A stretch of DNA of 64,000 nt from Candidatus Omnitrophota bacterium (GCA_030681595.1 JAUXSB010000003.1:95207-159206); one strand, 5' to 3'; shown: positions 7,569-37,471, numbered from the stretch's first letter. Translations and numbers: made by a program. The notes: a model not told the origin generated them from the sequence alone.

Positions 7569-7587
7569 ACGAATCTCCGCGGGCTAT

Positions 7588-11857: not shown

Positions 11858-11860
11858 AGC

Positions 11861-20102: not shown

Positions 20103-20254
20103 TTTTGCAGATTTAATAAGAGGATGATTAACAATTAAAGTTGTATCGTCAAGGACAAAATCATTATTCAGGCCGTTAGAATAGACTAAAAAAGAAAGTA
20201 GTATTAATCCTAATATAAAAAAAATATTCTTCGTAATATTATTTTTACCAATAG

Positions 20255-21220
20255 CTATAATTTACTCCTCCAATAATTCAACAAATCTTTTAATGTTTTT
20301 TCAAGAGGAATCTTGGGTTTCCAGCCGGTTTCCTTTTTAAACTTTGAACTATCCGGTACCTGCAAGGTTACATCAGAAGGCCTGAGAAGATACGGCTCTA
20401 CTTTAATTTTTGGTTTTTTATTGGTCATGGTTAATAAAATATCCAGCATCTCGCCTACCGTCAGGCTTCTTTCACCGCCGATATTATAAACCTCTCCGGC
20501 TGGGCACTTATTAACTAACAACCAATAGGCGCGCACAGTATCCCTGACATCAGCGAAGGTCCTGACGCTTTTAAGATTGCCGACATGGATAACCGGCTCC
20601 TGCAATCCTTTTTCTATCCGCGCGATTTGTTTGGCAAAAGAAGAAGAGGCAAAAACCTCTCCCCGGCGCGGCCCGGTATGGGTAAACATGCGCGTCCTGA
20701 TCGTCTTTATGCCATATGACAAAAAGTATTGAAAGGCGATCATATCTTCGGCAACCTTGCTGACCGCATAGGGGCTGGCGGGACGAAAAGGCTGATTTTC
20801 ATTAATAGGCACTTCATCCGCGTTTACCTGCCCATAGACCTCCGAAGAGCTGCAGATATGGACAACCGGGTCGATCCCTGCATAGCGGATAGCCTCCAGT
20901 AAATTTATTGTCCCGCAGGCGTTTGTTTCCACTGTGTTAACGGGCGCGTTAAAACTGGTTGGGACAAAAGACTGCGCCGCCAGATGAAAAATAATATCCG
21001 GCTTTATTTTAGTTATCGTATCTAATACGGATTTAGAATCCAACAGTTCACAATAAGAAAAATTAATCCTATCTATAACAGATGCGACATTATCCATCGG
21101 GCTTCTCCAGCGGCGAATGCCGTAAATTTCTATATCCTTGTCTTTTAGCGACAAGATATATTCCGCAAGGTGGCTTCCGACAAAACCCGTAATCCCCGTA
21201 ATCAAGACTTTCTTTTTCAT
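20255..21220 (-). CDS. GDP-sugar 4,6-dehydratase (Gmd/DmhA-like extended SDR)
   Basis: N-terminus MKKKVLITGITGFVGSHLAEY..IYGIRRWRSPM parallels the Gmd pattern ITGITGQDGSYL..HGIKRRSS. YxxxK catalytic pattern present. Confidence 0.6.
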   Translation of the reverse strand: MKKKVLITGITGFVGSHLAEYILSLKDKDIEIYGIRRWRSPMDNVASVIDRINFSYCELLDSKSVLDTITKIKPDIIFHLAAQSFVPTSFNAPVNTVETNACGTINLLEAIRYAGIDPVVHICSSSEVYGQVNADEVPINENQPFRPASPYAVSKVAEDMIAFQYFLSYGIKTIRTRMFTHTGPRRGEVFASSSFAKQIARIEKGLQEPVIHVGNLKSVRTFADVRDTVRAYWLLVNKCPAGEVYNIGGERSLTVGEMLDILLTMTNKKPKIKVEPYLLRPSDVTLQVPDSSKFKKETGWKPKIPLEKTLKDLLNYWRSKL

Positions 21221-21437
21221 GACCGCGCCCCCTCTTATTTAAATTTTTTAATCGTGACGGGCATCGCATGCCCTATCAGGGACATAAAAGGCCTCATCAC
21301 CCATTCCATTAAATTAACAAAACCATACAACCATTTTGGCACAAAAGGCCTGTAACTTATTTTTTCGTTATCTACTGTACTCATACAGCAATTGGCTATT
21401 GAGTTCTGACATATTTCATTATGGAAGAGATTCGAGT

Positions 21438-22895
21438 TTAACTATCTTTAATTTTCTTATACACATCCGGCTGCTCATCGCCAATACCCTTAATAAACAT
21501 TTTGGGCGCATGCCAGAAATACATCAACGCTTGGAAGAAAGGTATACTAAAAAAGGAGGCATCCCGCCAGTAACTTAATAACATGACTGGCTTAAAGAGA
21601 TACGAAAACGATGAAGATAAAATTCGCTTAGAAAAACGCAGAAACAAGGGGTAGTGAATGAATAATTGTGCTGTCCAAATCAATTTTTTTATATTCTTAT
21701 ATTCATTATAGACATCTTTGGACTTATAGGTAAATTTCCCTGCAGCTTCAAGCAGATTTCTTTCGCGCAAAAATTCTGCCAGCTTTGTGCCTTTGTAAAT
21801 CTTAAGAATCCCTACCCTAATGCCATAAGGCTTAAGCACCCGGGCGAATCGAATACTTTCAATGGCATCTTCCATTCTCTCGCAAGGCAAACAAAGCATA
21901 ACGTTAGTCAAAAATTTTAAATTATACTTATTGAGCAACTTTGTGATTTCTATGTAATTTTTATTTGGCACTCTTTTATTCAAAATATTCATACGGATAT
22001 TTTCTACCCCATGTTCTAAACCAAAGGTTACCCCTTTACAGCCTGAATCCTTCAGACCTCGTATCATTTCTTCATTAATACCTAAAACAGAAATATTGCA
22101 AGTAAAAGACAAATCAATATGTTGCTTGTACTGCCTTAGAAATTCCATAACCCAATTTTCATTCAAATTAAATGTATCGTCGGAGAAATGAATCGCCCTA
22201 GTCGGATATTTAGAGATTACTGACTTCACTTCATTGATCACATATTCAACACTATGACGACGAACTAATTTTCCCTTGCCTTCATACATTTTCTTGAATG
22301 TAGGCTCAAAACAATAAGAGCAATCATGAGGACAGCCCCGCTGGGTCATAAATCTTTTTAAAGCAAAGTTTCGCAACAAAGGATATTTGTCATAATATAA
22401 CCCTCTATCCGGGAAGGGGTATTTATCCAAATCGGATTCCAACTTGCCAAGATCATTTTTTATCCATCTGTCTTTCTTCTTTATCCAGAGATTCGGGATA
22501 TCATCGGTTTCTTGACGTGCATCAATGCGATTCATAAGCGTCAACAAAGATTCCTCACCCTCTCCCCTACAAATAATATCAACGTATCCACTGTCTACGA
22601 CTTCTTCAGGCATAAACATACAATGAGCCCCTCCCCAGACAACTAAATGTCCGGTTGCTTCTTTAATAATTTTCGCTATGGGCCTGAATATATTTACTTG
22701 TGGTGTCATTACAGAAAACCCGACAAGATCAGGCGAGGTTTTTTTAATAAACTTCAAAAGGTCATCTATTTTTTTATATTCCCATAACAAAGTAAGCCTT
22801 ACATCGTGACTGTGTTTTTTTAAATACGAACTTAGGTACATAATCCCTAAGCTTTCGTTAATAAAAGTATCGCTGATAAATAATATTCTGGCCAT
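21438..22895 (-). CDS. B12-binding-domain radical SAM enzyme (class B, methyltransferase-like) 1
   Basis: N-terminal cobalamin-binding Rossmann-like region, then CPHDCSYC (CxxxCxxC). Confidence 0.8.
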   Translation of the reverse strand: MARILFISDTFINESLGIMYLSSYLKKHSHDVRLTLLWEYKKIDDLLKFIKKTSPDLVGFSVMTPQVNIFRPIAKIIKEATGHLVVWGGAHCMFMPEEVVDSGYVDIICRGEGEESLLTLMNRIDARQETDDIPNLWIKKKDRWIKNDLGKLESDLDKYPFPDRGLYYDKYPLLRNFALKRFMTQRGCPHDCSYCFEPTFKKMYEGKGKLVRRHSVEYVINEVKSVISKYPTRAIHFSDDTFNLNENWVMEFLRQYKQHIDLSFTCNISVLGINEEMIRGLKDSGCKGVTFGLEHGVENIRMNILNKRVPNKNYIEITKLLNKYNLKFLTNVMLCLPCERMEDAIESIRFARVLKPYGIRVGILKIYKGTKLAEFLRERNLLEAAGKFTYKSKDVYNEYKNIKKLIWTAQLFIHYPLFLRFSKRILSSSFSYLFKPVMLLSYWRDASFFSIPFFQALMYFWHAPKMFIKGIGDEQPDVYKKIKDS

Positions 22896-23012
22896 TATAA
22901 TTGGTTAATGAATTTTAACAATATTTCAATCGGGCTGAATAGCTGCCAACAAAACCTGTTATCCCCATAATAAGAATTTCTTCTTTATTACATGGAACTC
23001 TTTCAATAAAGT

Positions 23013-24230
23013 TTACTTAGTGAATTTTTTGATAAACTTTGTGAATGTTGCCAAGATATAGTCCAGATGTTTTACGCCTAAATCCTGATGTACGCCGATA
23101 TGCAGGCCGTTTTCACCGATATATTCAGCAGCAGGAAAATCGCCATAGCGGTGCCCCAAAAAGGAAAAACCGGAGCACTGGGTCGGCATCGACGAAAATA
23201 AGCTACGCGAGTCAATGTTATTTTGCGTCAAAAAACACACTAGGTCCTGACGCCTGAAAGGCGCTCCCCGACGAACCACAACGGGGAACGCATGGGGCCC
23301 GATTTTTTCATAAGACTCCTCTTCGATACTATAGAAAAATTCCTCGTTTTTTTTAAAACGTTTCATAAGATACAAAAGATTCCTACGCCGGCGCTCCAGG
23401 ATTTTTTTATAAATCCCTAAGTTCCCCAGGCCGACCGCCGCTTCGATTTCGTTCATCTTTGCCGAAAAACCTATGCGCTCAAAAAGAAACCGCATATCCT
23501 CGCCAGCACCATACTGGAACCTCTTCGGGCAAGACGCAGAAGCGATGTTGACTACGCACTGTTCACATTTACAGGCCCGACCGTGCGAACGCAAAGACCT
23601 CAAAATCTCGGCAAAATCTTTACGCTCCGTCACGACCATTCCGCCCTCTATCGAAGTAATGATATGCGCCACATAAAGACTAAACGCACCCAGATCCCCT
23701 AACGTCCCCACATGCCTGCCTTTGTACATCGCACCGTGCGCTTCCGCTGCATCCTCCACCACAAAAAGTTGGTGTTTTCGGGCTATGTGGTTAATTTCAT
23801 CCATAGCCGCTGGTTTTCCCATCAGATGAACCGGCATAATGGCCCTGGTCTTTTTTGTAACAGCCCGCTCAATAAGATCGGTGTCGATATTTAAGGTCTT
23901 TGGATCAATATCCACGAAGACCGGTTTAAATCCTGCCTGCAGAACCGCATTGCCCGTTGCCACAAAAGACAACGCTGGAACAATAACCTCATCGTTACGC
24001 TTGGCTCCGAAATCATAAAAAATGGCCAAAGCCAGGGCGTCTGCATCTGTTCCGGAACTCACGGCTACAGCCTGACGCGTAGCTATAAGCCGGGCGAAAC
24101 GTTTTTCAAACTCCCTAACATAGTAACCGCAAGAGACACGACCAGAATCCAAAATACGCCTCACCATATCTTTCGATTTTTTTGTGACCGTCATCGTTCC
24201 AAACGCAACTTTCATCGGATTTCTTATCAT
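23013..24230 (-). CDS. DegT-fold PLP/PMP sugar 3-dehydrase (E1/ColD-like), with His replacing the Schiff-base Lys
   Basis: DegT/DnrJ/EryC1 fold. In the PLP-lysine motif (ArnB SFHAIKNITCAEGG) this protein reads SLYVAHIITSIEGG, i.e. His at the Lys position. This is the hallmark of CDP-/GDP-4-keto-6-deoxy-sugar 3-dehydrases. C-terminal Cys cluster CKCEQC..x8..C. The true start is probably internal (MKVAFG..). Confidence 0.6.
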   Translation of the reverse strand: MIRNPMKVAFGTMTVTKKSKDMVRRILDSGRVSCGYYVREFEKRFARLIATRQAVAVSSGTDADALALAIFYDFGAKRNDEVIVPALSFVATGNAVLQAGFKPVFVDIDPKTLNIDTDLIERAVTKKTRAIMPVHLMGKPAAMDEINHIARKHQLFVVEDAAEAHGAMYKGRHVGTLGDLGAFSLYVAHIITSIEGGMVVTERKDFAEILRSLRSHGRACKCEQCVVNIASASCPKRFQYGAGEDMRFLFERIGFSAKMNEIEAAVGLGNLGIYKKILERRRRNLLYLMKRFKKNEEFFYSIEEESYEKIGPHAFPVVVRRGAPFRRQDLVCFLTQNNIDSRSLFSSMPTQCSGFSFLGHRYGDFPAAEYIGENGLHIGVHQDLGVKHLDYILATFTKFIKKFTK

Positions 24231-24964
24231 ACCAACCCCTTAGCCCAATGCCGTTTTGCATACGCGTACCTATCTGGGGTTCCAAAATCCAGAAGCCTCC
24301 CCTTCTGCACGAATCCAAAACATCTCTCTTTAAGAAAGAAAGGGAAAAAATCATACTCCAACGAAAAGGATTCTTTCCTGCGCATATGGTTAAAGACAGA
24401 GCGATCCATCAGATAAATACCTGCATTGTCAAAATGGTTTGGCTTGTAACTTGCCTTCTCTTCAAAACCGATGATGCGCTGACGGCTACCCAGAAGAACC
24501 TTACCGGAATCCACCTTACCGCAGCATCTGACTAAAACCAGAGAAAGCAACGCTTTTTTAACCAGATGGAATTTAAGAAATTTATCCAAACCGACGCGCA
24601 GAAAAGAATCGCCGTTTAAAACCAGAAAAACCCGGCTGCTGATCCACGGCTTGGCATGCCAAACAGCGCCACCCGTTCCCAGCGCTTTTGTTTCCCGACA
24701 AAACTCAATCTGCCAAGACGCAGGATGCTGCTGATAATATTTTTCAATCGTATGGCCCCGATAACCCGTACTCAAGATAAACCTTCTGAACCCAAACCCC
24801 GCCACATAAACCATCAGATGTGTCAGGAAAGGCTTACCTGAGAATACGCTCATGGGTTTCGGCCAGTCTTTGACAATTTTCTTGAGGCGCTTGCCTTTGC
24901 CGCCACAGAGAATAATCACGTCGATTTTTGCCGGATCCAGCATCTTTTTGGACTTTTGACCCAA
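24227..24964 (-). CDS. hddC: D-glycero-alpha-D-manno-heptose 1-phosphate guanylyltransferase (HddC-like)
   Basis: VIILCGGKGKRLKKIVKDWPKPMSVFSGKPFLTHL..ILSTGYRGHTIEKYY closely parallels HddC (ILAGGLGTRL..VKDLPKPM..GKPFLEYL..ILSVGYLGEQIKEYF). Confidence 0.65.
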   Translation of the reverse strand: MGQKSKKMLDPAKIDVIILCGGKGKRLKKIVKDWPKPMSVFSGKPFLTHLMVYVAGFGFRRFILSTGYRGHTIEKYYQQHPASWQIEFCRETKALGTGGAVWHAKPWISSRVFLVLNGDSFLRVGLDKFLKFHLVKKALLSLVLVRCCGKVDSGKVLLGSRQRIIGFEEKASYKPNHFDNAGIYLMDRSVFNHMRRKESFSLEYDFFPFFLKERCFGFVQKGRLLDFGTPDRYAYAKRHWAKGLV

Positions 24965-25963
24965 TCAATAATTCGAATTCGGCCGATAATAAATAATCTG
25001 GCTGCCGAGTTCGTCAAAACGGAACGGAACGTGAATAAGGCCTTTGAGCTTCTGTTTAACGCGGCTCTGTAATTCGCGCTTGACATAAAGGAGCATAAAG
25101 CCGCCGCCGCCGGCGCCAAGAATCTTACCTCCGATGGCCCCGGCCTTTCTAGCTCTAAGATAAATTTCATCAATTTTCGAATTCGTAATATTTTTGCTCA
25201 GCGTCTTTTTGATAAGCCAAGTCTCATGAAGCAATTTCCCGAAATTTTCCAAAGGCTTCTGCTCATGGTTGAGGATATTCAAGGCTTCATTCACCATCGC
25301 ATACATAGTTTTTAATTCCTTAATTTTGTGGGGAATATTCTTGATCTGCTCTTCGGCGATCTCCGATGCGGTGCGCGAAAAACCAGTGAAAAAAAGCATG
25401 AGGTGCTGCTGGAGAAACTTCATCCTCTTAACGCTAATCGTTACAGGCGAAACCTCGATGTTTTTGTATCCGTTGAATTCAATTTTGTTTAACCCCCCGA
25501 AGGCAGCACTGACCTGATCCTGCGAGCCCACGTTCTCTTTAATCCATTCCTGCTCTACCTCAATGGCTTGGAAAGCCAGCTCTTTTTTTGTAACCATCCT
25601 CCCCTGAAGAGCATGGAGCGCATGCAAGAAACCGACTGTAAAAGAAGAGCTTGAACCGATACCCGTACGCGCCGGAAGGTCTCCAACATGCTGCAGGCTG
25701 ATGCCACGCTTGATGTTCAGATAGCGCAGACCCTCCCGCACCGCTGGATGCTGAATTTCAGCTACCTTCCTAACCAGTTCCTGCTTGGAATAAACGATGC
25801 GGTATTTCCAATCGAAAAAAGGCGGCACATAACAAAGCGTGATGTAGCAGTATTTGTCGATCGTCGTAGCTAGCACAACTCCGGGATGGCCATGATACCA
25901 TTCCGGATAATCTGTGCCACCGCCGAAAAAAGAAATGCGAAAAGGTGTTCTGCTAATAATCAT
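24965..25963 (-). CDS. hddA: GHMP-family sugar kinase, D-glycero-D-manno-heptose 7-phosphate kinase-like (HddA)
   Basis: RTPFRISFFGGGTDYPEWY..VVLATTIDKY..PARTGIGSSSSFTVGFLHAL GHMP motifs. Adjacent to hddC. Confidence 0.65.
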   Translation of the reverse strand: MIISRTPFRISFFGGGTDYPEWYHGHPGVVLATTIDKYCYITLCYVPPFFDWKYRIVYSKQELVRKVAEIQHPAVREGLRYLNIKRGISLQHVGDLPARTGIGSSSSFTVGFLHALHALQGRMVTKKELAFQAIEVEQEWIKENVGSQDQVSAAFGGLNKIEFNGYKNIEVSPVTISVKRMKFLQQHLMLFFTGFSRTASEIAEEQIKNIPHKIKELKTMYAMVNEALNILNHEQKPLENFGKLLHETWLIKKTLSKNITNSKIDEIYLRARKAGAIGGKILGAGGGGFMLLYVKRELQSRVKQKLKGLIHVPFRFDELGSQIIYYRPNSNY

Positions 25964-26008
25964 TGTCTCACTCCGATAGTTTGAAGGTTAGAATGGCAAA
26001 TACGTGTT

Positions 26009-26506
26009 TCATGCATCCCTTTGCGAACAGATGGGGTTTGTGGACGACCAAAGAATGTTAAAACGCGGATCATCCCATTTATAGGAAAACTGCTTCTCCG
26101 GATTATAATACGTGGACTGCTTGTAACTAAAGATGACTTTATCACTTAAAACGTAATAGGCGTTGCCGTAACCCGGAGGAATCAAAACCTGCAGCCTGTT
26201 TTTGTCGCTTAATGTGAATGACTGCCATTTGCCGAAATCTTTGGACTTAGGATCGCAATTCACCACGACGAAGAAGATTTCGCCGTAAAAACACGAAATC
26301 AATTTCCATGTAACGAAATCACCGTGAATACCGCGCAACACATTGTGTTTGGAAATAGAAATATCGTCTTGGATAAACTTTATATTGATGCCGTGTTTTT
26401 GATACAGGCCTTCATTGTACGTCTCGACGTATTCACCACGAAAATCCTTAAACGGATCAAGGCGAATTAATAAAACCCCGCCTAACTTAGTCTTAACAGT
26501 TTTCAT
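26009..26506 (-). CDS. RmlC-like cupin NDP-4-keto-6-deoxy-sugar 3,5-epimerase
   Basis: F.DFRGEYVETYN..VLRGIHGD..KLISCFYGEIFFVVVNCD..FGKW..LIPPGYGNAYYVLSDK fits the dTDP-4-dehydrorhamnose 3,5-epimerase family. Confidence 0.7.
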   Translation of the reverse strand: MKTVKTKLGGVLLIRLDPFKDFRGEYVETYNEGLYQKHGINIKFIQDDISISKHNVLRGIHGDFVTWKLISCFYGEIFFVVVNCDPKSKDFGKWQSFTLSDKNRLQVLIPPGYGNAYYVLSDKVIFSYKQSTYYNPEKQFSYKWDDPRFNILWSSTNPICSQRDA

Positions 26507-27840
26507 ATTCCCGCTTTCTTAGACTTATCAAATCTTTCATAAGCTTCATCCTGATACCTCAAAAGGTCATTATCAGAAACCTTAGATAAATTTATGCCTA
26601 CGCTATCATAATAATTGGATGCTTCCATCTGCTCAAAGCTCCATATGTCAACAAGGCCTATCTGACAAGCAAGATCATAAACATGCGTGCCGGGATACGG
26701 GGCCAAGATCATAAACTTTGACTGATCGGCGTTCAACTCAAATGCGAAATCAATGGTTTCCTTAATCGTCTCCTGTGTATCTCCCGGAAGCCCAATAATA
26801 TAACTGGCTATGATTGGCAATCCTACTTCTTTCATAATTCTAGCGGCCTTCCTAAACTGTTCTTTCGTCTCCTTCTTGCCTATCCTAACCAACATCTCTT
26901 CATTGCCACTTTCAACTCCTATAGCCGCAAAACAACACCCTGATTTCTTTAAAATATCTGCCAACCTCTCGGTAACTGAATCTGCCCGTAACTGTACCGT
27001 ATAACTTATATCAAATTGTCCTTCTATAATGCGATCACAGATAGAGAATGCGCGCTGCTCATCAATCGCAAATGTATCATCCCAAAACATTAAGTTTCTT
27101 ACCTTTAAACGGTTAGCAATATCAGAAATCTCATGTATAACATTTTCTACTGAGCGTAACCTAAGCTTTCTTTTCCATGTAACAGCGGATGCGCAAAAAA
27201 TACAATCATAAGGGCATCCTCTGCCGGAATAGATTGCAAGATGGCTCCCGCTGAAATAAGTTGGATCATCATACTCCTTAATATCCATTAAATCCCACGC
27301 GGGAAACGGTAATGCGTCAAGGTTATTTATAAAAGGGCGGACCGGGTTGACTTTTACGGAAAGTCCATCCTTATAGACAATGTTTTTGACTCCGGACGGG
27401 TCCTGTTTATTCTCTATTTTTTCTAAAAGCTCAAGGAGCGCTTCTTCGCCTTCTCCGACAATACCATAGGAAATACCATCCATCATAGAAGTTAAAGGCG
27501 TGCCGGTCACGTGAGGGCCCCCAATAATTGTAAAAATATCCGGCTGCCTTCGTTTTATTTCCTGCGCTGTTTTAACGACAACGGGGAACCTCGGAGTCAA
27601 CGTTGTAAAACACACGTATTTTGGATGGCTTTGCAATATAATCTCAGCCATCTGATCCACAGAGCTAGCAGGAGTCACCTCAAAATCAATGATAGAGCAG
27701 TCAAAGCTTCCTTTTGTACGAATAAAAGAAGCTAAAAGCGCAATATTAAGAGGGCAACGGATTACTCCTTGTTTTTTCCATTGCCCGGACTTCTGCAGAT
27801 TCGGCGGGCGGACAAAAACAACTTTTGCTTTATTCCCCAT
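26503..27840 (-). CDS. B12-binding-domain radical SAM enzyme 2
   Basis: B12-binding region (IGGPHVTGTPL), then GRGCPYDCIFCAS. Confidence 0.8.
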   Translation of the reverse strand: MGNKAKVVFVRPPNLQKSGQWKKQGVIRCPLNIALLASFIRTKGSFDCSIIDFEVTPASSVDQMAEIILQSHPKYVCFTTLTPRFPVVVKTAQEIKRRQPDIFTIIGGPHVTGTPLTSMMDGISYGIVGEGEEALLELLEKIENKQDPSGVKNIVYKDGLSVKVNPVRPFINNLDALPFPAWDLMDIKEYDDPTYFSGSHLAIYSGRGCPYDCIFCASAVTWKRKLRLRSVENVIHEISDIANRLKVRNLMFWDDTFAIDEQRAFSICDRIIEGQFDISYTVQLRADSVTERLADILKKSGCCFAAIGVESGNEEMLVRIGKKETKEQFRKAARIMKEVGLPIIASYIIGLPGDTQETIKETIDFAFELNADQSKFMILAPYPGTHVYDLACQIGLVDIWSFEQMEASNYYDSVGINLSKVSDNDLLRYQDEAYERFDKSKKAGI

Positions 27841-27849
27841 AGTTAATCA

Positions 27850-28848: not shown

Positions 28849-28857
28849 ATTATAAAA

Positions 28858-29826: not shown

Positions 29827-29836
29827 CTTCCCTCTT

Positions 29837-30706: not shown

Positions 30707-31472
30707 CCAACTCCTTCATCAGCTGTTCAAATTCTTTTTCATTCGGTGATTTTCTGTGCCATTCGTAAGGACTGGAAACAAATGTATTACAGCCGAAGCC
30801 TTTTTTTGTATGTGCTATAATGGCAATTACAGCATTCGCTTTCCTGAGTATCTCGCTTTTTAGAATATCTATATCGTGCCCGTCAGCTTCTCTAATCTCG
30901 CACCCGAACGCCGCAAATTTTTCAGCAGGATTAACTATCTGAAGCCCTCTTGAATGCGACATATTATTATCATAGATTATGGTCAAATTATTAAGCTTTA
31001 AGCTGGTTGCAACCATAATTGCTTCCCAGACAGAACCCTCGTTAGATTCTCCGTCGCCGATCACCACATAAACGCGCCGTTCGGATTTTTGTATCTTTAG
31101 CCCCAACGCTATACCAACGGCTAGGCCAATACCATGCCCTAACGAACCTGTGGAAGCTTCAACGCCGGAGACTTTAAACCTATCGGCATGACAGCCAAAG
31201 TCTGACATAAATCCGCCGAACGAATACACTTTTTTAAGGTCAAAATATCCGAACTTAGCCAAGACACAATAGTGCGCAAGACTTGCATGCCCTTTACTTA
31301 AAATAAATATATCTCGTTCTTGCCATGAAGGAAGCTTGGGATTATGCTTAATAGTACCATATATTGCATATACAATCTCAACTACAGAAAAACAAGATGG
31401 TATATGCCCATGACCACTTTTTCTTGATATATCAAGAATTTGCTTTCTTATTTCTTTACACCATTTATTCAT
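30690..31472 (-). CDS. Transketolase, N-terminal section (TPP-binding domain)
   Basis: SGHGHIPSCFSVVEIVYAIY..LSKGHASLAHY..GSLGHGIGLAVGIALG..VYVVIGDGESNEGSVWEA. Confidence 0.75.
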   Translation of the reverse strand: MNKWCKEIRKQILDISRKSGHGHIPSCFSVVEIVYAIYGTIKHNPKLPSWQERDIFILSKGHASLAHYCVLAKFGYFDLKKVYSFGGFMSDFGCHADRFKVSGVEASTGSLGHGIGLAVGIALGLKIQKSERRVYVVIGDGESNEGSVWEAIMVATSLKLNNLTIIYDNNMSHSRGLQIVNPAEKFAAFGCEIREADGHDIDILKSEILRKANAVIAIIAHTKKGFGCNTFVSSPYEWHRKSPNEKEFEQLMKELDEEAI

Positions 31473-31491
31473 TTTATAAAATAAAATTACA

Positions 31492-32931
31492 CTAAATATT
31501 AGTAATATTTTGACTCAACCGCTGCAAATAATCCGCTATCTTTTTCTTTGGATTACGCAAGTAAGCCATTTGCTGTAGTTCTTTTCTTTTTGACCAAGAT
31601 AACTCTTTGCTTTCCATTACACCTGGATCCTGTTTACCATAATGACTCCAATTATCAGAAACAATTTTCATGCCATATTCGCCTCTTAAAGCCATCTGTC
31701 TTAACTCTGTTCCGGGAAAAGGAACTGCTATAGGAAAAGTAACAGAATAAAGATCCAATTTCTCAGCCATTGCTATTGCTTTCATCACATGTTTCTCAGT
31801 ATCGCCCGGCAAACCAATAATGAATGCACCGACAGGTATAATCCCCGCCAGTTTAGTCCACCTTACCACATCCTCTATTTGCTTAGTAGTAATATTTTTC
31901 TTGATTAATTTTAAGGTCTGATCATCGGCACTTTCCAATCCAAAGAAAATAAAATAGCAACCGGCGTTTCTCATGCGTTTTAGTAATTCCAAAGACATAT
32001 CACTAACACGAGTACTGCATGACCAGGTAATTTTCTTATGTAACCCCCGGTCAACAAACACGTTCAGGAATTCATCAACCCATGCCATATTAATAAGAAA
32101 GGTTTCATCTAAAAAAGCAACGGACTTACAATTAAATTCGCTGATATTACGTTCTATTTCTGCAATGACCGAAAGAACACTTCGGTGGCGGACCGTAGAA
32201 CCCAATGCACGGCAGCAAAAGACACAACGATACGGGCACCCTCTCCCCGTTACCATAGGTAATTCAAGGTTTGTCCTATGCGGATAAGTCCCGGGGTATT
32301 TCGACAGATTAAACTCTTGCCATGCAGGAAAAGGTAGGGAATCAAGATTCAGAATAGGATTATTAGAGGCCCCGACAATAACTTTTTCCGTCATCCTGGT
32401 TATAACTCCATTTATTCTAGATAAAGCCTGATCATTTCCCAGAGAATCAAATATTTTCGGCAAAACCTCTTCGCCTTCTCCGCTTATAACAAAATCAAAC
32501 CAGGGAAATTCATCCAATGTTTCTTTAGGAATTGCTGTGACATGCGGTCCCCCTACGCATATTTTCACTTCAGGGAGTGTATGTTTTATTTTCTCTGCAA
32601 TAAAAGCCGCAGTTCTGACCTGGATTGTAAAAGCGGTAAAACCAACTACCGCCGGTTTCGTTTTGGAGACAAAATCAATAAGTTGTTCTATGGAAAAACA
32701 ATCTATAACCATATCTATGTATTTAACTTTTAACCCTTCTTTTTTTGCGATGGCTAAAAGATACGCTATCCCTATATGCGGAGTTTCCTGATTAGGAATA
32801 TCTTTCTCAATCCTCACATTCATTTTATTTTTCTGATCCAGTTCCCAATTAAGGCTGGGATTTATGAGAAGTAAATCAAGCTTATTTTCATCCCCCGCAT
32901 CATACTTCCCAATAAAAACATCTGCTACCAT
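31492..32931 (-). CDS. B12-binding-domain radical SAM enzyme 3
   Basis: B12-binding region (CVGGPHVTAIP), then GRGCPYRCVFCC. Confidence 0.8.
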   Translation of the reverse strand: MVADVFIGKYDAGDENKLDLLLINPSLNWELDQKNKMNVRIEKDIPNQETPHIGIAYLLAIAKKEGLKVKYIDMVIDCFSIEQLIDFVSKTKPAVVGFTAFTIQVRTAAFIAEKIKHTLPEVKICVGGPHVTAIPKETLDEFPWFDFVISGEGEEVLPKIFDSLGNDQALSRINGVITRMTEKVIVGASNNPILNLDSLPFPAWQEFNLSKYPGTYPHRTNLELPMVTGRGCPYRCVFCCRALGSTVRHRSVLSVIAEIERNISEFNCKSVAFLDETFLINMAWVDEFLNVFVDRGLHKKITWSCSTRVSDMSLELLKRMRNAGCYFIFFGLESADDQTLKLIKKNITTKQIEDVVRWTKLAGIIPVGAFIIGLPGDTEKHVMKAIAMAEKLDLYSVTFPIAVPFPGTELRQMALRGEYGMKIVSDNWSHYGKQDPGVMESKELSWSKRKELQQMAYLRNPKKKIADYLQRLSQNITNI

Positions 32932-32950
32932 TTACTCATCCTTTCTATGA

Positions 32951-33718
32951 CTATTTTATTTCAATATAGGAAATCCTTGAAGTCATAGGGAATCGTTCGA
33001 TTTTTGAATGTTTAAGCCCCAGGGTCTCTTTTAATGCCATTGTCTCTCCGGGAAAAATATCATCGCAGAGCTCATCAAAAACAAGAATACTTCCCCTGCA
33101 TAAATTCGGCATGATTGTTCTTAAAGCAACCTTTGTCGGTTTATAAATATCAAAGTCAAAAACTGCCAAAGAAATAATGGTTTCAGGATGTTTCTTAAAA
33201 TACGCGGGGACAGTTTTTATCGCATCGCCTTTCATAAGCTCATATCTTTTTAAATGTGACATGGGATTAAGCGCTTCCTGCTTCGCCAATACCTTATCTA
33301 GATAATCTTCATACCCAGAAGGCAATGAAAAGGACCCATCAACGCATTTACTGCGAGTTCCGTCTTTTTTATCCACTCCTTTAAACCCTTTAAAGGTATC
33401 GAAACCGACAATTTTCCTATGTCTGTTAAAAGGCTCAAATAGGCCGCGTAACGCCGACATCAATGAAAGAGTCTGACCCCATCTTACTCCGAATTCTACA
33501 ATAATGCCGTGAACATGAATTATCTTTTTATATATTTCGTAGAAGAATAATAACCTTGAGAGATTCTTTGAAGTTAAAAACAACCCCAGATTCGACAATA
33601 ATTCTTCGCTAGGCAACGGTGCGGTTTTCAAAAGATTGACGAATTGAGCCAAAATCTCCTTTTCTCCCTGGCTGGATAATACGATTGCATCATATTTTTT
33701 AGTTTTCATTTCTTCCAC
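32951..33718 (-). CDS. TylF/MycF/CmcI-family SAM-dependent methyltransferase
   Basis: 255 aa; GIIVEFGVRWGQTLSLM..GSILVFDE fits the macrocin-O-MT / CmcI class I MT pattern. Confidence 0.55.
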   Translation of the reverse strand: MEEMKTKKYDAIVLSSQGEKEILAQFVNLLKTAPLPSEELLSNLGLFLTSKNLSRLLFFYEIYKKIIHVHGIIVEFGVRWGQTLSLMSALRGLFEPFNRHRKIVGFDTFKGFKGVDKKDGTRSKCVDGSFSLPSGYEDYLDKVLAKQEALNPMSHLKRYELMKGDAIKTVPAYFKKHPETIISLAVFDFDIYKPTKVALRTIMPNLCRGSILVFDELCDDIFPGETMALKETLGLKHSKIERFPMTSRISYIEIK

Positions 33719-34686
33719 CGCCTTTTATTTTCAATCCACCATTGGGTAGTCATACTTATCCCTTCATCAACACTGTACTGCGGCTGCCACTGAAGTATGC
33801 TTTTTGCCTTTGCGCAATCAAGCGCCCTAAAGGGAATAGTTGAAGGTTCACGGCTGTTGTATTTGATTTTTTTGGGTATGTGTCCAGCATGTTTAAGCGC
33901 AAGCGTAACTACTTCGCGTACCGTCGTCTTAACTCCTGAGCCGATATTAAAAGTTTCATGTTTAATTAAATCATCATTCATCATTAATGCAATTGCCCTG
34001 GCAAAATCCTCCGAGTAAACCACATCTCTCGTCACCCCAGGGCTGCCCCAGACCTCAAAGGGATCCATTTTATCCACTGCCTTGCGAATAATAGCAGGAA
34101 TGAAATTGGACGTCTTGGGGTTAAATTTCGCATAAGGACCGAATATATTTGATACCCGCGCAACAACAATTTCCATCCCCGAATGCATGTTCCAAAATTG
34201 GCATACTTTTTCAATAAATCTAAACGCCCATCCAACTCCGAAGTAATTTTGATGCGGAGCATGGTTTAAATCAAGCTGTTCTTCCTTTATATGGCCAATG
34301 TATTCCTGATACACTGTTGCTGAACCAACAAATACCACTCTATTAATGTGTTCCCTGTAGAACGCCTGAAACATCTGAATATTCATTATCACATTATCAT
34401 ACATCTGCTCCCAAGAATAAACCGTGGCTGCGCCAGCACCCACGGAATTTGCCGCCACCATAATAGCACAATCACACCCCTTGCATATCTGCCTGCACTG
34501 TTTCTCAGACCTTAAATCGCCATATACATACGCTATCCTTTTATCCCTAATAAAGGGTTTTGTATGTTTGTAAAAAGAAGCTTTAATGCGGGTTTTTGGA
34601 TACTGTGCGAGAACATGCTTGATAACACTGGTACCCGCTAAACCAGTTGCACCGGCTACAAATAGTGTTTTATTATCCAAATACAT
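33706..34686 (-). CDS. Fcl-like NAD(P)-dependent epimerase/4-reductase (paralog 3)
   Basis: TLFVAGATGLAGTSVIKHVL; NIFGPYAKFNPKTSNFIPAIIRKAVDKMDPFEVWGSPGVTRDVVYSEDFA. Confidence 0.65.
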   Translation of the reverse strand: MYLDNKTLFVAGATGLAGTSVIKHVLAQYPKTRIKASFYKHTKPFIRDKRIAYVYGDLRSEKQCRQICKGCDCAIMVAANSVGAGAATVYSWEQMYDNVIMNIQMFQAFYREHINRVVFVGSATVYQEYIGHIKEEQLDLNHAPHQNYFGVGWAFRFIEKVCQFWNMHSGMEIVVARVSNIFGPYAKFNPKTSNFIPAIIRKAVDKMDPFEVWGSPGVTRDVVYSEDFARAIALMMNDDLIKHETFNIGSGVKTTVREVVTLALKHAGHIPKKIKYNSREPSTIPFRALDCAKAKSILQWQPQYSVDEGISMTTQWWIENKRRWKK

Positions 34687-34692
34687 AGTTTA

Positions 34693-35427
34693 TTATTTTT
34701 TTATATGCCAACCGCAAAAAATTTCCTGCAAGATAAGTAACAAAATGTATGAACCATTGATCAAGGGGCGATTCTTTCTTATCCCCCCTATGCGCTTCGG
34801 TTCATCACCTGGTATTTCGCCGACTTTTAGTTTTTGTTTAGCACATCGGATTGCCACAAGCGGTTCAAAACCAGCCATTTTTACATACCTATTGTCGAGC
34901 TGAAACAAACTTTTCTTCCATGCGCGAAAACCAACCAGAGTATCCGTATAATGCCCCCCAAATAATACATTAATCATAGCGGTAAACATCCAGTTACCAA
35001 AGGCAGTCACCACGTCATCATCGTAACTCTTGGCTCCCTTTAGATACCGGGAAACGATAACCAAATCATATCCCTTTTTCATTTCCTCAACTAACGGCGG
35101 GATCAATTCAGGAACCGAATTTCCATCGGGCGTAAAAGTAATGATAATATCTCCAATTGCCGCGTCCAAAGCACCCTGATACGCGTTTACCAACCCTTTT
35201 AATTTTTGCTGCACCACAGGATACCCTAGTGATTGCGCATATTCACTAGTGCCATCGGTTGAATTGCCGTCAACAACAATAATCTGATCAACCCATTCTT
35301 TTTTTATTTTGGGCATCACAGCCTTCATGCCGTCAATTTCATTAAACGTAGGTATAACTAACGTTACTTTCATATTTAACCTCTCCTGTCTAAAGAATAC
35401 TGATACCGCATAATTCAACCCAGCCAA
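34693..35427 (-). CDS. Family 2 glycosyltransferase (polyprenyl-phosphate sugar synthase-like)
   Basis: VTLVIPTFNEIDGMKAVMPKI..IIVVDGNSTDGTSEYA matches the GT2 DXD-region pattern. Confidence 0.7.
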   Translation of the reverse strand: MAGLNYAVSVFFRQERLNMKVTLVIPTFNEIDGMKAVMPKIKKEWVDQIIVVDGNSTDGTSEYAQSLGYPVVQQKLKGLVNAYQGALDAAIGDIIITFTPDGNSVPELIPPLVEEMKKGYDLVIVSRYLKGAKSYDDDVVTAFGNWMFTAMINVLFGGHYTDTLVGFRAWKKSLFQLDNRYVKMAGFEPLVAIRCAKQKLKVGEIPGDEPKRIGGIRKNRPLINGSYILLLILQEIFCGWHIKK

Positions 35428-37315
35428 TCTCTTTCTTCGTATCGGCCGGACTAATATTGCACAATTTCCCGGTTAAAGGATCAAGAATGCCTACGTAAAT
35501 TTTATACTTTCCGCTACTAATGCCCGAAGAAATAGAAAACCAGTAATTTTCCTTTACGATCTCCTCTTCCTGCCAGGAACTAGTAGGATAAATACGGTAA
35601 CACAACGGATGAATCATACTCTGCCTGATCATATCGCTTGAATCTACCAGCACAATGGATAAAGAATAATCTTTAGCTATTTTACCAAGTGCCTGCCAGA
35701 AAAAAGTAATCAAAATTTTATCCTTTTTGCCGAAAATATTTTTTTCTAACTTATAACCTATAATTTTTATACTACCGTCAAAAACATCAGCCTTTAAATT
35801 GCTATCTAGAGCCGAACCGACTGATTCATAAAGGCCAAAATCCCCCTTGTAATCACGCTTAAAAAGAACAGTATTTTCTAACGCTCTTACGGGGCGTAAC
35901 TGCCACCTCGCCAAAAAGCTTCTTAAATCCGCATATCCTGCGTACGGCTGATAGAAATTATAAAAAGTCATACTATCATCAAAATCTATTAACGCAAACT
36001 CTGGCTGATCCAAAACAAGCAAACTGCTATCTTCGCTTAAAGATGTTCCCGCCAATACGCGGTGCAACGAATACAGGCTATCCGTAATATTAGATAGTTT
36101 AGGCAAAAAATTAAAAGTTGCGATTACGGAGCTATTTTTAGGTATTATTTTTATAAAATTATCTTTTTCTATCGCATCGCCTGTTAATAAGCATCCTTTC
36201 CTTATCTGACGCGATATATCAGGTTGCGGCCCTAACCGGATACTAAACGACAACGCCACAAAGATAATAGTTGCGCTGATTAAATATTTGTATTTTTGCG
36301 TTACGCTAGACTTGAGTAAAAATTTTAGCCCAAATACCGCGGATACAAAAATAAATGCGAGCATTTCAGAAGGATAATAGTAATATAGCGTTGTTTCAGT
36401 TTCTCTCAGAGAAAGTAGGTGTTGCAGAAAATTAGGCAAAACTGCTAATAGAATTACCGGATTTAAAAAAGAAAGAAAACTTAACGGCCCGAAAAGATTA
36501 AATAAGTACTCCATCTTTTGCGGCATAGCTATAAATTTTAACATCGCAATAGGATGAAATATAATTGTTTTAGCCATTTGCGCTGGTGTCGCTCCCAGAT
36601 GCGCATAGAGGCTGCCAGATATTGATTTTGCCTGAGCGAGATTCGGTAATATAATCAAGCCATAAAATAAGAGATAAAGAAACCCCGAGAGAAATGGCAA
36701 GGCGAACCATTTTTTTTCCTTCTTTTCAATCAAGGCGTATACACTAAGCATAATCAGGATTAAAGACATATTTTCCTTGCTTAGTAAGCATAAGAAATTG
36801 AATATTGCAAATTTTTTAAAATCATTTTTTATAAAAAAATATAATAAACAAAATTGTATAAACGGCAGGAAACTTTCCGGGTGAAATTCATTAAGATTGG
36901 TATAGCCGACCGCAGGGTACAATAAATAAATAATTACAAAAACCAAACCCCAAGCTTCGCTCAATAGCTTTCGCGCTATAAGAAACAATGGGATTGCCGC
37001 CAAAGCTAACATAAGGCTTTGTATCGCTAACAAAGTAACCGGATGCGGGAACAAGGCGTATATCGGGGCAATTAAAACTGCCGGCGTGATTTCAATATGG
37101 TTTTGAAGAAAATGCACGCCAATCAAAGAGATAAAAGACCTGCCGCTTATTAAGTTGCGAAAAGTCTGGTTATAGATAGCCAGATCCCAATCGCCATAAT
37201 TAAAATTAGCGTATCTGCAAAGGGAAACTTTCACAAATACGACTGCATATATGAAAATTAAGAAAAGTACAAAAAACCACAATATGCGGCTATAATTATT
37301 TCTGGCTATATTCAT
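35390..37315 (-). CDS. Polytopic membrane protein, DUF2079 / GT-C-like putative glycosyltransferase
   Basis: 641 aa with about 12 TM helices, then a roughly 250-aa soluble C-terminal domain. N-terminal region (DWDLAIYNQTFRNLISG) resembles the DUF2079 family. Confidence 0.5.
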   Translation of the reverse strand: MNIARNNYSRILWFFVLFLIFIYAVVFVKVSLCRYANFNYGDWDLAIYNQTFRNLISGRSFISLIGVHFLQNHIEITPAVLIAPIYALFPHPVTLLAIQSLMLALAAIPLFLIARKLLSEAWGLVFVIIYLLYPAVGYTNLNEFHPESFLPFIQFCLLYFFIKNDFKKFAIFNFLCLLSKENMSLILIMLSVYALIEKKEKKWFALPFLSGFLYLLFYGLIILPNLAQAKSISGSLYAHLGATPAQMAKTIIFHPIAMLKFIAMPQKMEYLFNLFGPLSFLSFLNPVILLAVLPNFLQHLLSLRETETTLYYYYPSEMLAFIFVSAVFGLKFLLKSSVTQKYKYLISATIIFVALSFSIRLGPQPDISRQIRKGCLLTGDAIEKDNFIKIIPKNSSVIATFNFLPKLSNITDSLYSLHRVLAGTSLSEDSSLLVLDQPEFALIDFDDSMTFYNFYQPYAGYADLRSFLARWQLRPVRALENTVLFKRDYKGDFGLYESVGSALDSNLKADVFDGSIKIIGYKLEKNIFGKKDKILITFFWQALGKIAKDYSLSIVLVDSSDMIRQSMIHPLCYRIYPTSSWQEEEIVKENYWFSISSGISSGKYKIYVGILDPLTGKLCNISPADTKKEIGWVELCGISIL

Positions 37316-37465: not shown

Positions 37466-37471
37466 ATAAAC

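Follow-up and report, generated by a model that had tools for sequence, protein, structure and literature searches.

Gene content of the locus

The stretch of DNA analysed here, 64,000 nucleotides from a Candidatus Omnitrophota bacterium (GCA_030681595.1, JAUXSB010000003.1:95207-159206; hereafter the window, with positions counted from its first letter), carries a locus of 16 consecutive, closely spaced open reading frames (ORFs) whose predicted products belong to families of nucleotide-sugar enzymes and glycosyltransferases (20255-37315, minus strand; Table 1). According to the ORF listing of the window, neighbouring ORFs overlap or are mostly separated by 0-45 nt, and only two larger intergenic gaps are found, of 117 nt (22896-23012) and 217 nt (21221-21437). 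We put at about even the chance that the whole block is one operon making and exporting a highly tailored, probably GDP-linked, heptose-type sugar destined for a surface glycan, a reading built from the sequence and from the context of its orthologues.

Window proteins (NCBI accessions MDP1852692-MDP1852721) were scanned with Pfam and NCBIfam, and all Pfam matches have E-values of 1e-11 or lower, except that of the methyltransferase. A first-pass annotation of this DNA had described a single contiguous nucleotide-sugar tailoring locus, and the 16 minus-strand ORFs agree with this description. Its domain list holds as well, since the profile hidden Markov model searches recovered every domain named in it, among them a GHMP kinase, an NTP_transferase, a DegT-fold protein, a Gmd-like 4,6-dehydratase with canonical SSSE...YAVSK residues, a member of the RmlC-like 3,5-epimerase family, transketolase (TK) N and C halves (Transketolase_N and Transket_pyr/C) encoded by separate, overlapping ORFs (TK-N and TK-C), three B12-binding radical S-adenosylmethionine (SAM) proteins (rSAM1 to rSAM3), each with both Pfam domains and a CxxxCxxC motif, a family 2 glycosyltransferase (GT2) and a DUF2079 membrane protein, the AF2 model of which shows a GT-C-like fold. 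The locus further encodes three extended short-chain dehydrogenases/reductases (SDR_A to SDR_C).

Table 1. Features of the locus, with its 16 genes in order of transcription, followed by features of the flanks.
Feature	Position	Strand	Basis or remark
DUF2079 membrane protein, GT-C fold, ~9-11 transmembrane (TM) helices	35390-37315	minus	Pfam DUF2079 4.8e-57
GT2, polyprenyl-phosphate sugar synthase type (AglJ/Dol-P-hexose transferase/ArnC-like)	34693-35427	minus	Pfam Glycos_transf_2 3.7e-18
SDR_C, GDP-fucose-synthase-related extended SDR	33706-34686	minus	neither Tyr nor Lys of YxxxK
CalS11-like (TylF superfamily) putative NDP-sugar O-methyltransferase	32951-33718	minus	PDB 4gf5/3tos
rSAM3, B12-binding + radical SAM, accessory	31492-32931	minus	Pfam B12-binding 2.7e-21, Radical_SAM 1.1e-22; C232PYRCVFC
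TK-N, transketolase-like N half (pyrophosphate (PP)/thiamine diphosphate (ThDP)-binding)	30690-31472	minus	Pfam Transketolase_N 6.9e-32
TK-C, transketolase-like pyrimidine (Pyr)/C half	29837-30706	minus	Pfam Transket_pyr 2.1e-20
SDR_B, Fcl/GDP-mannose epimerase (GME)-related extended SDR, YGWMR	28858-29826	minus	Tyr kept, Lys replaced by Arg
SDR_A, Fcl/GME-related extended SDR, FGGMAK	27850-28848	minus	no catalytic Tyr
rSAM2, B12-binding-type N-terminal domain + radical SAM core, most conserved cassette gene	26503-27840	minus	Pfam; C209PYDCIFC
RmlC-like cupin, putative 3,5- or 5-epimerase on 4-keto sugar	26009-26506	minus	overlaps rSAM2 by 4 nt
HddA/WcbL-like GHMP sugar kinase	24965-25963	minus	NCBIfam HddA, PDB heptokinases
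Sugar-1-phosphate nucleotidylyltransferase (NTP transferase), guanylyltransferase-like (ManC-type/HddC)	24227-24964	minus	Pfam NTP_transferase 9.5e-21
E1-type pyridoxamine phosphate (PMP)-dependent 3-dehydrase, accessory	23013-24230	minus	PDB E1 3bcx
rSAM1, B12-binding + radical SAM, accessory	21438-22895	minus	Pfam; C188PHDCSYC
Gmd-like NDP-sugar 4,6-dehydratase	20255-21220	minus	Pfam GDP_Man_Dehyd 2e-79
Tetratricopeptide repeat (TPR) membrane protein, ~10 TM + C-terminal TPRs, TMTC-like motifs; candidate additional glycosyltransferase, membership in system uncertain	18534-20258	minus	TPR matches
Terminator-like hairpin, 15-bp stem	37435-37467	minus	closes upstream 80-aa gene, marks operon 5' boundary
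80-aa gene	37472-37714	minus	very basic; two ~35-aa motif copies; then perfect 15-bp-stem hairpin

A conserved cassette with lineage-specific insertions

Contexts of orthologues were obtained from a metagenome scan and from exact-protein look-ups, and the ORFs neighbouring each orthologue were matched to the window proteins. Eleven genes form a collinear core (Gmd-like dehydratase, SDR_C, CalS11-like methyltransferase, TK-N, TK-C, SDR_B, SDR_A, rSAM2, RmlC-like cupin, HddA-like GHMP kinase and NTP transferase) that is complete in at least eight other metagenome loci (L002, L087, L093, L100, L101, L110, L111 and L112) and is cut by contig ends in L091, L092, L095 and L102. Each cassette protein is 50-95% identical to its window counterpart, and since this conservation extends across many uncultured lineages, the cassette presumably yields a single, defined product on which selection acts. 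Names available for a few of the matches give a taxonomic spread of Omnitrophota, Planctomycetota, Phycisphaerales, Geobacteraceae and Nanoarchaeota. Orthologues of rSAM2 are 64-91% identical in bacterial metagenomes and 50-52% in archaeal metagenome-assembled genomes (MAGs); no orthologue was found among PLSDB plasmids (best match ~31% identity). In complete cassettes rSAM2 stands next to the RmlC-like gene, with one ORF (methyltransferase-like or DegT-like) intervening in a few loci, and SDR_A lies directly upstream of rSAM2 in every long-cassette locus examined.

On top of the core, the window carries accessory genes, namely the E1-type 3-dehydrase together with rSAM1, and rSAM3. Orthologues of rSAM3 occur in L002 (70% identity), L111 (56%) and L091 (53%), at varying positions within the cassette, and those of the 3-dehydrase (64-65%) in L096 and L111; the former gene is absent from L112 and the latter from both L112 and L002. 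rSAM1 belongs to a separate orthologue family (45-70% identity) that includes a Paramagnetospirillum sequence, and one member of this family resides in a locus rich in GT2/PMT_2 pairs with further B12-type radical SAM genes. The 'supercluster' of the first-pass annotation is therefore contiguous in this genome, but its actual structure is that of a widely conserved 11-gene cassette plus lineage-specific insertions: when block synteny was checked in related genomes, the core proved collinear, whereas the 3-dehydrase, rSAM1 and rSAM3 were found in some loci only.

The nearest relative of the window is L112, from groundwater, in which UvrA is 81% identical and DUF2079, GT2 and a bare cassette occupy the same uvrA-adjacent site. 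There, a class-I methyltransferase gene takes the place of the 3-dehydrase and rSAM1, rSAM3 is missing, and a small NTP transferase gene replaces the TPR membrane gene. Identity between the two loci exceeds that of UvrA for SDR_A (95%), rSAM2 (91%), SDR_B (89%) and the Gmd-like dehydratase (89%), but falls below it for the NTP transferase (54%), SDR_C (56%), DUF2079 (65%) and TK-N (68%), a mosaic which suggests recombination or uneven selection inside the locus. Acquisition of the whole block as a horizontally transferred island was considered and found unsupported, given an unremarkable GC content (0.39-0.46 against a window mean of ~0.41) and the same uvrA-adjacent site in L112.

Shorter versions of the cassette were also found. 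The one found in a Planctomycetota MAG and in L004 consists of a single SDR, the NTP transferase, the kinase, a more distant TK pair, a 319-aa methyltransferase-like protein, rSAM2, the RmlC-like cupin and a GT2; in L004 and L115, TK and rSAM2 are present in the absence of any Fcl-like reductase. The archaeal version (L005) combines an NTP-transferase/kinase fusion with a GmhB-like HAD protein, the RmlC-like cupin, SDRs and rSAM2, without TK. The single SDR of these short and archaeal cassettes (L004 4378-5316, L115 4357-5295, L005 5714-6652) reads TTNSGYG...FYGKTK and has a canonical YxxxK, without the Glu typical of 4,6-dehydratases.

Two further proteins recur inside cassettes. One of ~315 aa, with no Pfam match on record, is found in eight loci (for example L002 8049-9002, L004 9041-10000 and L110 11175-12113) but neither in the window nor in L112; its motif YEFGCGxCQN resembles those of class-I SAM methyltransferases. 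Another methyltransferase-like protein, of 364 aa, recurs in L091 and L111.

Predicted sugar activation, dehydration, epimerisation and methylation

The best NCBIfam model of the GHMP kinase is HddA, at 142 bits against a cut-off of 600. Among solved structures its closest matches are all heptokinases (WcbL 4usk, 125 bits; 3k85, 112; 4n3o, 111), the next family being mevalonate kinase at 57 bits. The NTP transferase matches guanylyltransferases best, namely mannose-1-phosphate guanylyltransferase (133 bits, cut-off 440) and HddC (124 bits, cut-off 300). Activation of a GDP-heptose by hddA and hddC, as claimed earlier, thus retains its best matches, at scores far below the cut-offs and with no gmhA or gmhB nearby. 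Taken together with the Gmd-, Fcl- and GME-like matches of the SDR proteins, GDP-heptose is the best-supported reading, and the heptose identity of the product is plausible rather than proven.

The same enzymes might instead handle a different sugar-1-phosphate, perhaps with activation by another nucleotide; examples would be a hexose, or a free sugar that is salvaged and receives its phosphate at C1. This would fit matches to HddA, HddC, Gmd and Fcl that lie far under the NCBIfam equivalog cut-offs, a dehydratase for which dTDP-glucose dehydratase (166 bits) and LegB (161 bits) score near gmd (TIGR01472, 182 bits against a cut-off of 415), the missing gmhA and gmhB, and the dTDP-sugars on which the characterised CalS11 and RmlC act. 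We nevertheless regard it as unlikely: only heptokinases exceed 110 bits with the kinase, the NTP transferase prefers guanylyltransferases, GDP-fucose synthase and GDP-mannose epimerase are the top matches of the SDRs, a GmhB-like HAD gene adjoins the kinase/NTP-transferase fusion in the archaeal locus (and only there), and RmlC-like cupins occur in GDP-heptose pathways too (PMC10440746).

Dehydration would fall to the Gmd-like protein, in which alignment shows the catalytic residues to be canonical (CSSSEVYG and SPYAVSK). The RmlC-like cupin matches Pfam dTDP_sugar_isom at 4.2e-47 and scores 141 bits with TIGR01221, for which the cut-off is 156. Pfam TylF gives a sub-threshold match (E 1e-3) to the putative methyltransferase, so that the TylF/CmcI-like label used in the first-pass annotation is better replaced by CalS11-like: residues 11-247 of its 255 match CalS11, the TDP-rhamnose 3'-O-methyltransferase, with an E-value of 4e-59. 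Its orthologues are core members of the cassette with 63-75% identity.

The DegT-fold protein is closer to E1 (3bcx, 197 bits over a full-length alignment) than to ColD (172-176 bits). The His of its YVAHIIT motif falls on E1 His220, a column in which the H220K mutant 3bb8 has Lys, and a loop with four cysteines follows (C220-x-C222-xx-C225-x8-C234); both traits, the His and the four Cys, are conserved in the L096 and L111 orthologues, whereas the DegT paralogues of cassette loci have Lys and no such loop. The [2Fe-2S] ligands of E1 we take to be C193, C251, C253 and C261. C220 and C222 align with C251 and C253, C225 and C234 lie in the same loop, and the equivalent of C193 is Ala. By these residues the protein is E1-type rather than ColD-type, with a predicted Fe-S cluster and PMP. 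Of the ColD/E1 3-deoxygenation proposed in the first-pass annotation, the DegT fold with His at the position of the pyridoxal phosphate-binding Lys stands; the enzyme is E1-like and not ColD-like, and no gene for an E3 partner was found in the locus. The characterised heptose C3-dehydratases are, in contrast, ColD-like and use glutamate instead of an Fe-S cluster (PMC10440746).

Three SDRs with altered active sites

GDP-fucose synthase is the best NCBIfam model for all three SDRs, and all three keep the dinucleotide-binding motif. In each of them, however, the catalytic YxxxK is altered, with deviations that are conserved in 10-16 orthologues per protein. For SDR_A, which has Gly or Phe at the Tyr position, HMMER alignments with GDP-fucose synthase (7ll6) and the Y174F structure of GDP-mannose epimerase (2c5a) confirm the loss of the Tyr. 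SDR_B keeps the equivalent of Fcl His179. Cassette orthologues of SDR_C show 47-59% identity. The description of these proteins as three Fcl-like epimerase/4-reductases is consequently right as to their relatives, but since the catalytic triad is altered in all three, the functional label is unsafe.

Radical SAM enzymes related to AprD4

The three radical SAM enzymes are only 25-29% identical to one another, and none approaches an NCBIfam equivalog model. Each contains a B12-binding domain that scores 63-76 bits with Pfam (cut-off 32), and each has AprD4 as its best PDB sequence match (for rSAM2, 108 bits and ~23% identity). An AF2 model of rSAM2 (pLDDT 92.5) likewise finds its best full-length structural neighbour in AprD4 (TM-score 0.78/0.77), the cobalamin enzymes MgmA, TsrM, OxsB, TokK and CysS giving 0.68-0.73 on the query. 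The best NCBIfam model of rSAM2 is HpnJ, a non-methylase acting on a sugar moiety.

AprD4 is a radical 1,2-diol dehydratase that acts on an aminoglycoside sugar and binds no cobalamin, while C-methyltransferases are by far the largest characterised group, with GenK, GenD1 and Fom3 as the sugar- or nucleotide-linked cases (PMC12931638). The window enzymes share with GenK, GenD1, Fms7, Fom3 and AprD4 (PMC12931638; PDB 6fd2) a Rossmann-type B12-like N-terminal domain, a CxxxCxxC core and a sugar-tailoring context, but their identity to these proteins is at most ~23-30% and they form orthologue families of their own. With the non-cobalamin AprD4 as the closest solved relative of all three, the C-methylation attributed to them earlier is an assumption.

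We see a considerable, if less than even, chance that these enzymes, or at least rSAM2, are not cobalamin C-methyltransferases at all but radical dehydratases or rearrangement enzymes, comparable to AprD4 or to the ring-contracting HpnJ and OxsB. One possibility is that rSAM2 dehydrates the C6-C7 diol in the side chain of the heptose, giving a carbonyl for use by the TK-like enzyme and the atypical SDRs. The sequence and structure matches to AprD4 and the top NCBIfam match to HpnJ point this way, and the constant adjacency of SDR_A and rSAM2 is reminiscent of AprD4 and AprD3, which are a dehydratase-reductase pair. It is also consistent with the short and archaeal cassettes, which have no canonical 4,6-dehydratase signature, and with the several non-methylase chemistries present in the superfamily (PMC12931638). 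What speaks for methylation is a B12-binding domain well above the Pfam threshold in all three proteins, the dominance of C-methyltransferases (GenK, GenD1, Fom3) among characterised members, the identity of merely ~23% to AprD4, and structures of MgmA, TsrM and TokK that are almost as close (TM-score 0.68-0.72).

A split transketolase-like enzyme with replaced phosphate-pocket residues

The best PDB match of TK-N is 6yak, the N component of a split-chain transketolase (168 bits), and that of TK-C is 6yaj (108 bits). As in this Carboxydothermus hydrogenoformans enzyme, the PP half and the Pyr/C half are separate chains and the ThDP-binding and catalytic His motifs are present: TK-N keeps SGHGH, SKGH, GDGESNEG, DNN and EWH, which cover ThDP and Mg binding and the catalytic His, and TK-C retains the cofactor Glu, Asp and His (CEN, WDG and THH). 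The difference lies in the substrate pocket and in the genes around it, which in the cassette family are those of a nucleotide-sugar operon. Relative to 6yaj, TK-C has GDVSVYL for DADLSKST, CGASFDYAWDGATHH for THAGLTVGEDGASHQ and RLSD-P for RLGRSGVP, and at the positions of the Ser, His and Arg that bind phosphate in canonical transketolases, other residues stand in the window protein, in all ten close orthologues and in the distant L004 homologue. Because these residues are replaced, we argue that the substrates are not ordinary sugar phosphates.

In principle, the split TK could serve precursor supply, providing sedoheptulose-7-phosphate or an octulose phosphate to the kinase and nucleotidyltransferase without ever touching a nucleotide sugar. 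Its closest solved relative is a genuine split-chain transketolase, and long and short cassettes alike carry its genes together with those of the HddA-like kinase and the NTP transferase; a precedent is the GDP-octose of lincomycin biosynthesis, where a dedicated C-C-forming enzyme, the transaldolase LmbR, is combined with HddA-, GmhB- and HddC-like steps. Such a role appears very improbable, however, in view of the replacement of substrate-phosphate residues in every cassette orthologue, the bacterial cassettes that have no accompanying GmhA-type isomerase or GmhB-type phosphatase, and the archaeal version, which possesses the kinase, NTP transferase, HAD protein and rSAM2 but no TK. The alternative of a C2 transfer to the nucleotide sugar itself is compatible with the short cassettes, in which no Fcl-like reductase accompanies the TK pair, as would fit consumption of the ketone by C-C bond formation, although a reductase could be encoded elsewhere in those genomes.

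Proposed delivery by a GT2/DUF2079 pair

The likely true start of the GT2 gene is at 35373, giving a product of 226 aa, which is also the length called in L001. Its NCBIfam matches are AglJ (96 bits, cut-off 325), dolichyl-phosphate (Dol-P)-hexose transferase (75 bits), ArnC and PpgS, all below cut-offs, and it adjoins the GT-C gene in the window, in L002 and in L112. The product of the latter, a DUF2079 protein, carries a DWD motif in its first external loop, the two Asp of which (D42 and D44) are invariant in an alignment of 51 sequences. Foldseek searches of the PDB with its AF2 model (pLDDT 91.5) retrieve STT3/PglB/AglB, ArnT and ALG9 with E-values of 1e-6 to 4e-4, the TM-scores being only 0.34-0.47. 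The C-terminal part (35390-35900, ~residues 470-641) is a beta-sandwich similar to the carbohydrate-binding domain of Aquifex Wzt (Foldseek E 1e-4, TMt 0.49-0.54). That domain recognises a 3-O-methyl-mannose cap, an intriguing coincidence beside a CalS11-like methyltransferase which may nonetheless reflect a generic beta-sandwich likeness.

The modelled GT-C fold of DUF2079, next to a GT2 of the polyprenyl-phosphate type, suggests delivery by a lipid carrier. Two-component systems of this kind include ArnC/ArnT, GtrB/GtrC, Ppm1/Pmt and PpgS/Rv3779, with which the window shares a small GT2, here one whose best matches are polyprenyl-phosphate glycosyltransferases, directly beside a polytopic GT-C-fold protein that bears acidic residues in its first external loop; the window system differs in that its GT-C protein belongs to the uncharacterised DUF2079 family and has the additional beta-sandwich, and no flippase gene is seen.

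A second lipid-carrier pair is encoded at 54946-56992 (minus strand), where a DPM1-like GT2 gene (242 aa; IIPTYNERENI...DDNSPD...DADFSH) overlaps that of a GT87-family GT-C protein (Pfam GT87, 3.6e-22). From its genes, the organism seems to use several polyprenyl-phosphate-sugar/GT-C systems.

Flanking genes and the destination of the sugar

Downstream of the locus, in this order, lie the gene for a 9-TM protein with TPRs (18534-20102 as listed), uvrA, a gene for an 839-aa TPR protein and, at 2069-4117 and 4560-12837 (minus strand), a complete gene set for a type IV pilus or an apparatus of the MSHA kind, comprising four genes with N-terminal prepilin methylation sites, T2SS-F, T2SS-E/MshEN, a secretin, PilO- and PilM-like genes and PilX_N. 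The listed ORF of the TPR membrane protein encodes nine TM helices and starts at a TTG located after the first TM helix. The in-frame sequence upstream of it (20103-20258) contains neither a stop codon nor an ATG, GTG or TTG, and encodes IFFILGLILLSFLVY...NDFVLDD, which would be TM1 and a GT-C-type acidic loop; either the start codon is non-canonical or, alternatively, the sequence may contain an error. The match to TMTC_DUF1736 is sub-threshold (E 0.0015-0.0017) and is not improved by the upstream extension; the protein collection has no exact copy of the protein as listed. The 'TMTC-like' label given to this protein earlier agrees with its TPRs and, if the ORF is extended, with FVLDD, while the DUF1736 match stays below threshold.

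From these neighbours the first-pass annotation had suggested that the sugar might be used for protein O-glycosylation, with the TMTC-like membrane protein modifying type IV pilins or an S-layer protein. Four pilin-like (N_methyl) and pilMOQ/T2SS-E/F genes are indeed present 8-18 kb downstream, the membrane protein has TMTC-like motifs (FVLDD, YRPL and TPRs), and the cassette of L111 has a GT41-TPR gene and an N_methyl gene at its flanks. Yet the argument is one of proximity, and between the locus and the pilus genes lie uvrA and the gene for the 839-aa TPR protein. In L112 the TMTC-like gene is absent from this site and the contig stretch retrieved bears no pilus genes, and in the window its first TM helix has no canonical start codon and its Pfam TMTC match stays below threshold. 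Other cassettes lie among ordinary polysaccharide genes (GT2, GT4, ABC transporter, MBOAT), and the conserved transferase partner in Omnitrophota is DUF2079. A pilin or S-layer destination consequently appears improbable.

On the higher-coordinate (upstream) side, the locus is bordered by housekeeping genes (aspartate dehydrogenase, panC-folK, dap, lysA and arg). The 80-aa gene that immediately precedes it encodes two copies of the motif K(A/V)GVK(R/K)E(D/K)GYLYFVDK(K/Q)G(N/D)IS(R/C)AKM.RG and has no significant match in a Pfam scan; it is also called in L001, and L112 has an 80-aa gene at the equivalent place. Beyond it (37749-38055, minus strand) two short ORFs (76 and 60 aa) overlap and look as if a frameshift had divided the gene of a four-helix-bundle protein in two; their GRQLVKAADSIGANI and ARGSLKETKYWLRRA segments may resemble 23S rRNA-intervening-sequence proteins. 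A promoter scan yielded 64 hits against 53 +/- 7 in shuffled sequence, which is not above expectation, and no promoter is claimed.

A proposed pathway and its place among known systems

Every step of the following pathway is proposed from family membership. The HddA-like kinase and the guanylyltransferase-like enzyme would activate a heptose as a GDP-sugar, from which the Gmd-like enzyme would form a 4-keto-6-deoxy intermediate. In this strain the E1-type Fe-S/PMP dehydrase would then remove the 3-OH, and the RmlC-like cupin would epimerise carbons beside the ketone. More speculatively, the radical SAM enzymes would modify unactivated carbons, either by C-methylation, as GenK and Fom3 do, or by radical dehydration, as in AprD4, and the split TK-like ThDP enzyme would extend the nucleotide sugar by a C2 unit at a carbonyl, which might be the C4 ketone (compare the branching by YerE/ErwE) or a side-chain aldehyde, with chain extension as the result. 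The atypical SDRs would process the resulting carbonyls, and the CalS11-like enzyme would O-methylate the NDP-sugar. Finally, the GT2 would load the finished sugar onto polyprenyl phosphate and, after flipping, the GT-C-fold DUF2079 protein would transfer it to an extracytoplasmic acceptor.

The closest parallels are the GDP-6-deoxy- and GDP-3,6-dideoxy-heptose pathways of Campylobacter jejuni capsules, known also from Y. pseudotuberculosis and B. pseudomallei (HddA/WcbL, HddC, DmhA/WcbK, a C3-dehydratase that depends on pyridoxal phosphate, RmlC-like epimerases and C4-reductases; PMC10440746, PMC10680097), and the GDP-3,6-dideoxy-heptose route follows the same logic of dehydratase, 3-dehydratase, epimerase and reductase (PMC10440746). 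Shared with the window are the heptokinase-like GHMP protein, the guanylyltransferase-like and Gmd-like enzymes, the DegT-fold 3-dehydrase with His for Lys, the RmlC-like cupin and the Fcl-related SDRs. On the other hand, the C. jejuni C3-dehydratases are 62-67% identical to ColD of E. coli O55 and Y. pseudotuberculosis, whereas the window enzyme is E1-type with a Cys loop; the window SDRs have no canonical YxxxK and the locus no gmhA; its radical SAM, split TK-like and CalS11-like proteins are without counterpart in these pathways; and delivery would proceed by GT2 and GT-C proteins instead of capsule polymerases.

A second parallel is offered by yersiniose and erwiniose, where CDP-3,6-dideoxy-4-keto-glucose made by E1/E3 is branched by the ThDP-dependent YerE/ErwE and then reduced by YerF/ErwF (PMC9306805). 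As in the yersiniose, erwiniose and caryophyllose loci (PMC9306805), genes for an E1-type 3-dehydrase and a 4,6-dehydratase, which would give a 3,6-dideoxy-4-keto NDP-sugar, share the locus here with those of a ThDP enzyme and of additional reductase-like proteins of the NAD(P) type, which makes this branching a plausible functional analogue for addition of a C2 branch followed by reduction. Differences are that the window enzyme is two-chain and of transketolase fold, and that the nucleotide is probably GDP and not CDP. YerE and ErwE, for their part, consist of a single chain and belong to the acetolactate-synthase type of ThDP enzymes. Because TK belongs to the conserved cassette and the 3-dehydrase is an accessory that L112 and L002 do without, any branching by TK cannot depend on 3-deoxygenation. 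Erwiniose and caryophyllose, considered as a product class because they are 3,6-dideoxy, higher-carbon and C2-branched, were dropped as direct matches, since their synthesis relies on YerE-type enzymes that act on CDP-hexose and take long keto acids as donors.

Several points weigh against the proposed pathway. None of the 16 genes reaches its own NCBIfam equivalog cut-off, so that all are divergent members of their families. Neither gmhA nor gmhB is found among the scanned window ORFs or among the ORFs, other than cassette genes, that recur in the bacterial loci. The scans of the 18.5-38 kb region show no gene of the flavodoxin-reductase or ferredoxin type that could encode the E3 (AscD) partner of the 3-dehydrase, although one may lie elsewhere in the genome. 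The step order may differ from that proposed, since the SDR of the short and archaeal cassettes is devoid of the dehydratase Glu. A role of SDR_A, SDR_B and SDR_C as reductases is doubtful from their active sites; the reference triad is that of E. coli Fcl (S107, Y136, K140), in a sequence with internally consistent numbering. By sequence, methylation, dehydration and rearrangement by rSAM2 are indistinguishable, and the nearest solved relative is a non-cobalamin dehydratase. That the TK-like enzyme acts on a nucleotide sugar is speculative, the basis being the missing phosphate pocket and the gene context; the phosphate ligands are taken to be R358, S385, H461 and R520 in the E. coli enzyme, and we know of no transketolase with a nucleotide-sugar substrate.

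Literature searches on DUF2079, and on transketolase, radical SAM or hddA-hddC genes with heptose or O-antigen clusters, yielded no description of this cassette, and the earlier statement that the gene set could be matched to no described pathway remains valid. The logic of GDP-(3,6-di)deoxy-heptose synthesis, the pairing of a ThDP enzyme with reductases and ArnC/ArnT-like delivery by GT2 and GT-C proteins are already known. New, to judge from these searches, is the combination of AprD4/B12-type radical SAM enzymes, a split TK without its phosphate pocket, three SDRs with altered motifs and a CalS11-like methyltransferase, coupled to a DUF2079 GT-C protein.

Implications

Tentatively, and well short of an even chance, we propose that the cassette embodies a new route in which higher-carbon or branched sugars are built directly on the nucleotide sugar by new enzyme chemistry. 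In it, a carbonyl or an unactivated carbon of GDP-heptose would be formed or altered by a radical SAM enzyme of the AprD4 kind, TK would transfer a C2 unit to the nucleotide sugar to give a C9 or C2-branched product, and the SDRs would finish it. If true, this would be the first transketolase to act on a nucleotide sugar, and at least one new radical SAM sugar reaction would be widespread in uncultured anaerobes (Omnitrophota and Planctomycetota and, for part of the cassette, DPANN-type archaea). All of the enzymes are soluble proteins of normal length, and GDP-heptose substrates of the type prepared by Raushel exist, so that these hypotheses can be tested in vitro.

Pathways to deoxy- and branched sugars have classically been rich in new enzymology, and they shape recognition at the cell surface, and four types of protein in this cassette are without a characterised nucleotide-sugar counterpart: the rSAM2 family, the TK without a phosphate pocket, the SDRs without the catalytic Tyr and the DUF2079 GT-C protein. 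Omnitrophota are tiny bacteria with a presumed lifestyle of attachment to, or predation on, other cells. The exchange of accessory genes (a class-I methyltransferase versus the E1-type dehydrase with rSAM1, and presence or absence of rSAM3), together with the mosaic identity between the window and its nearest relative, is the pattern expected for surface-antigen diversification in this phylum.

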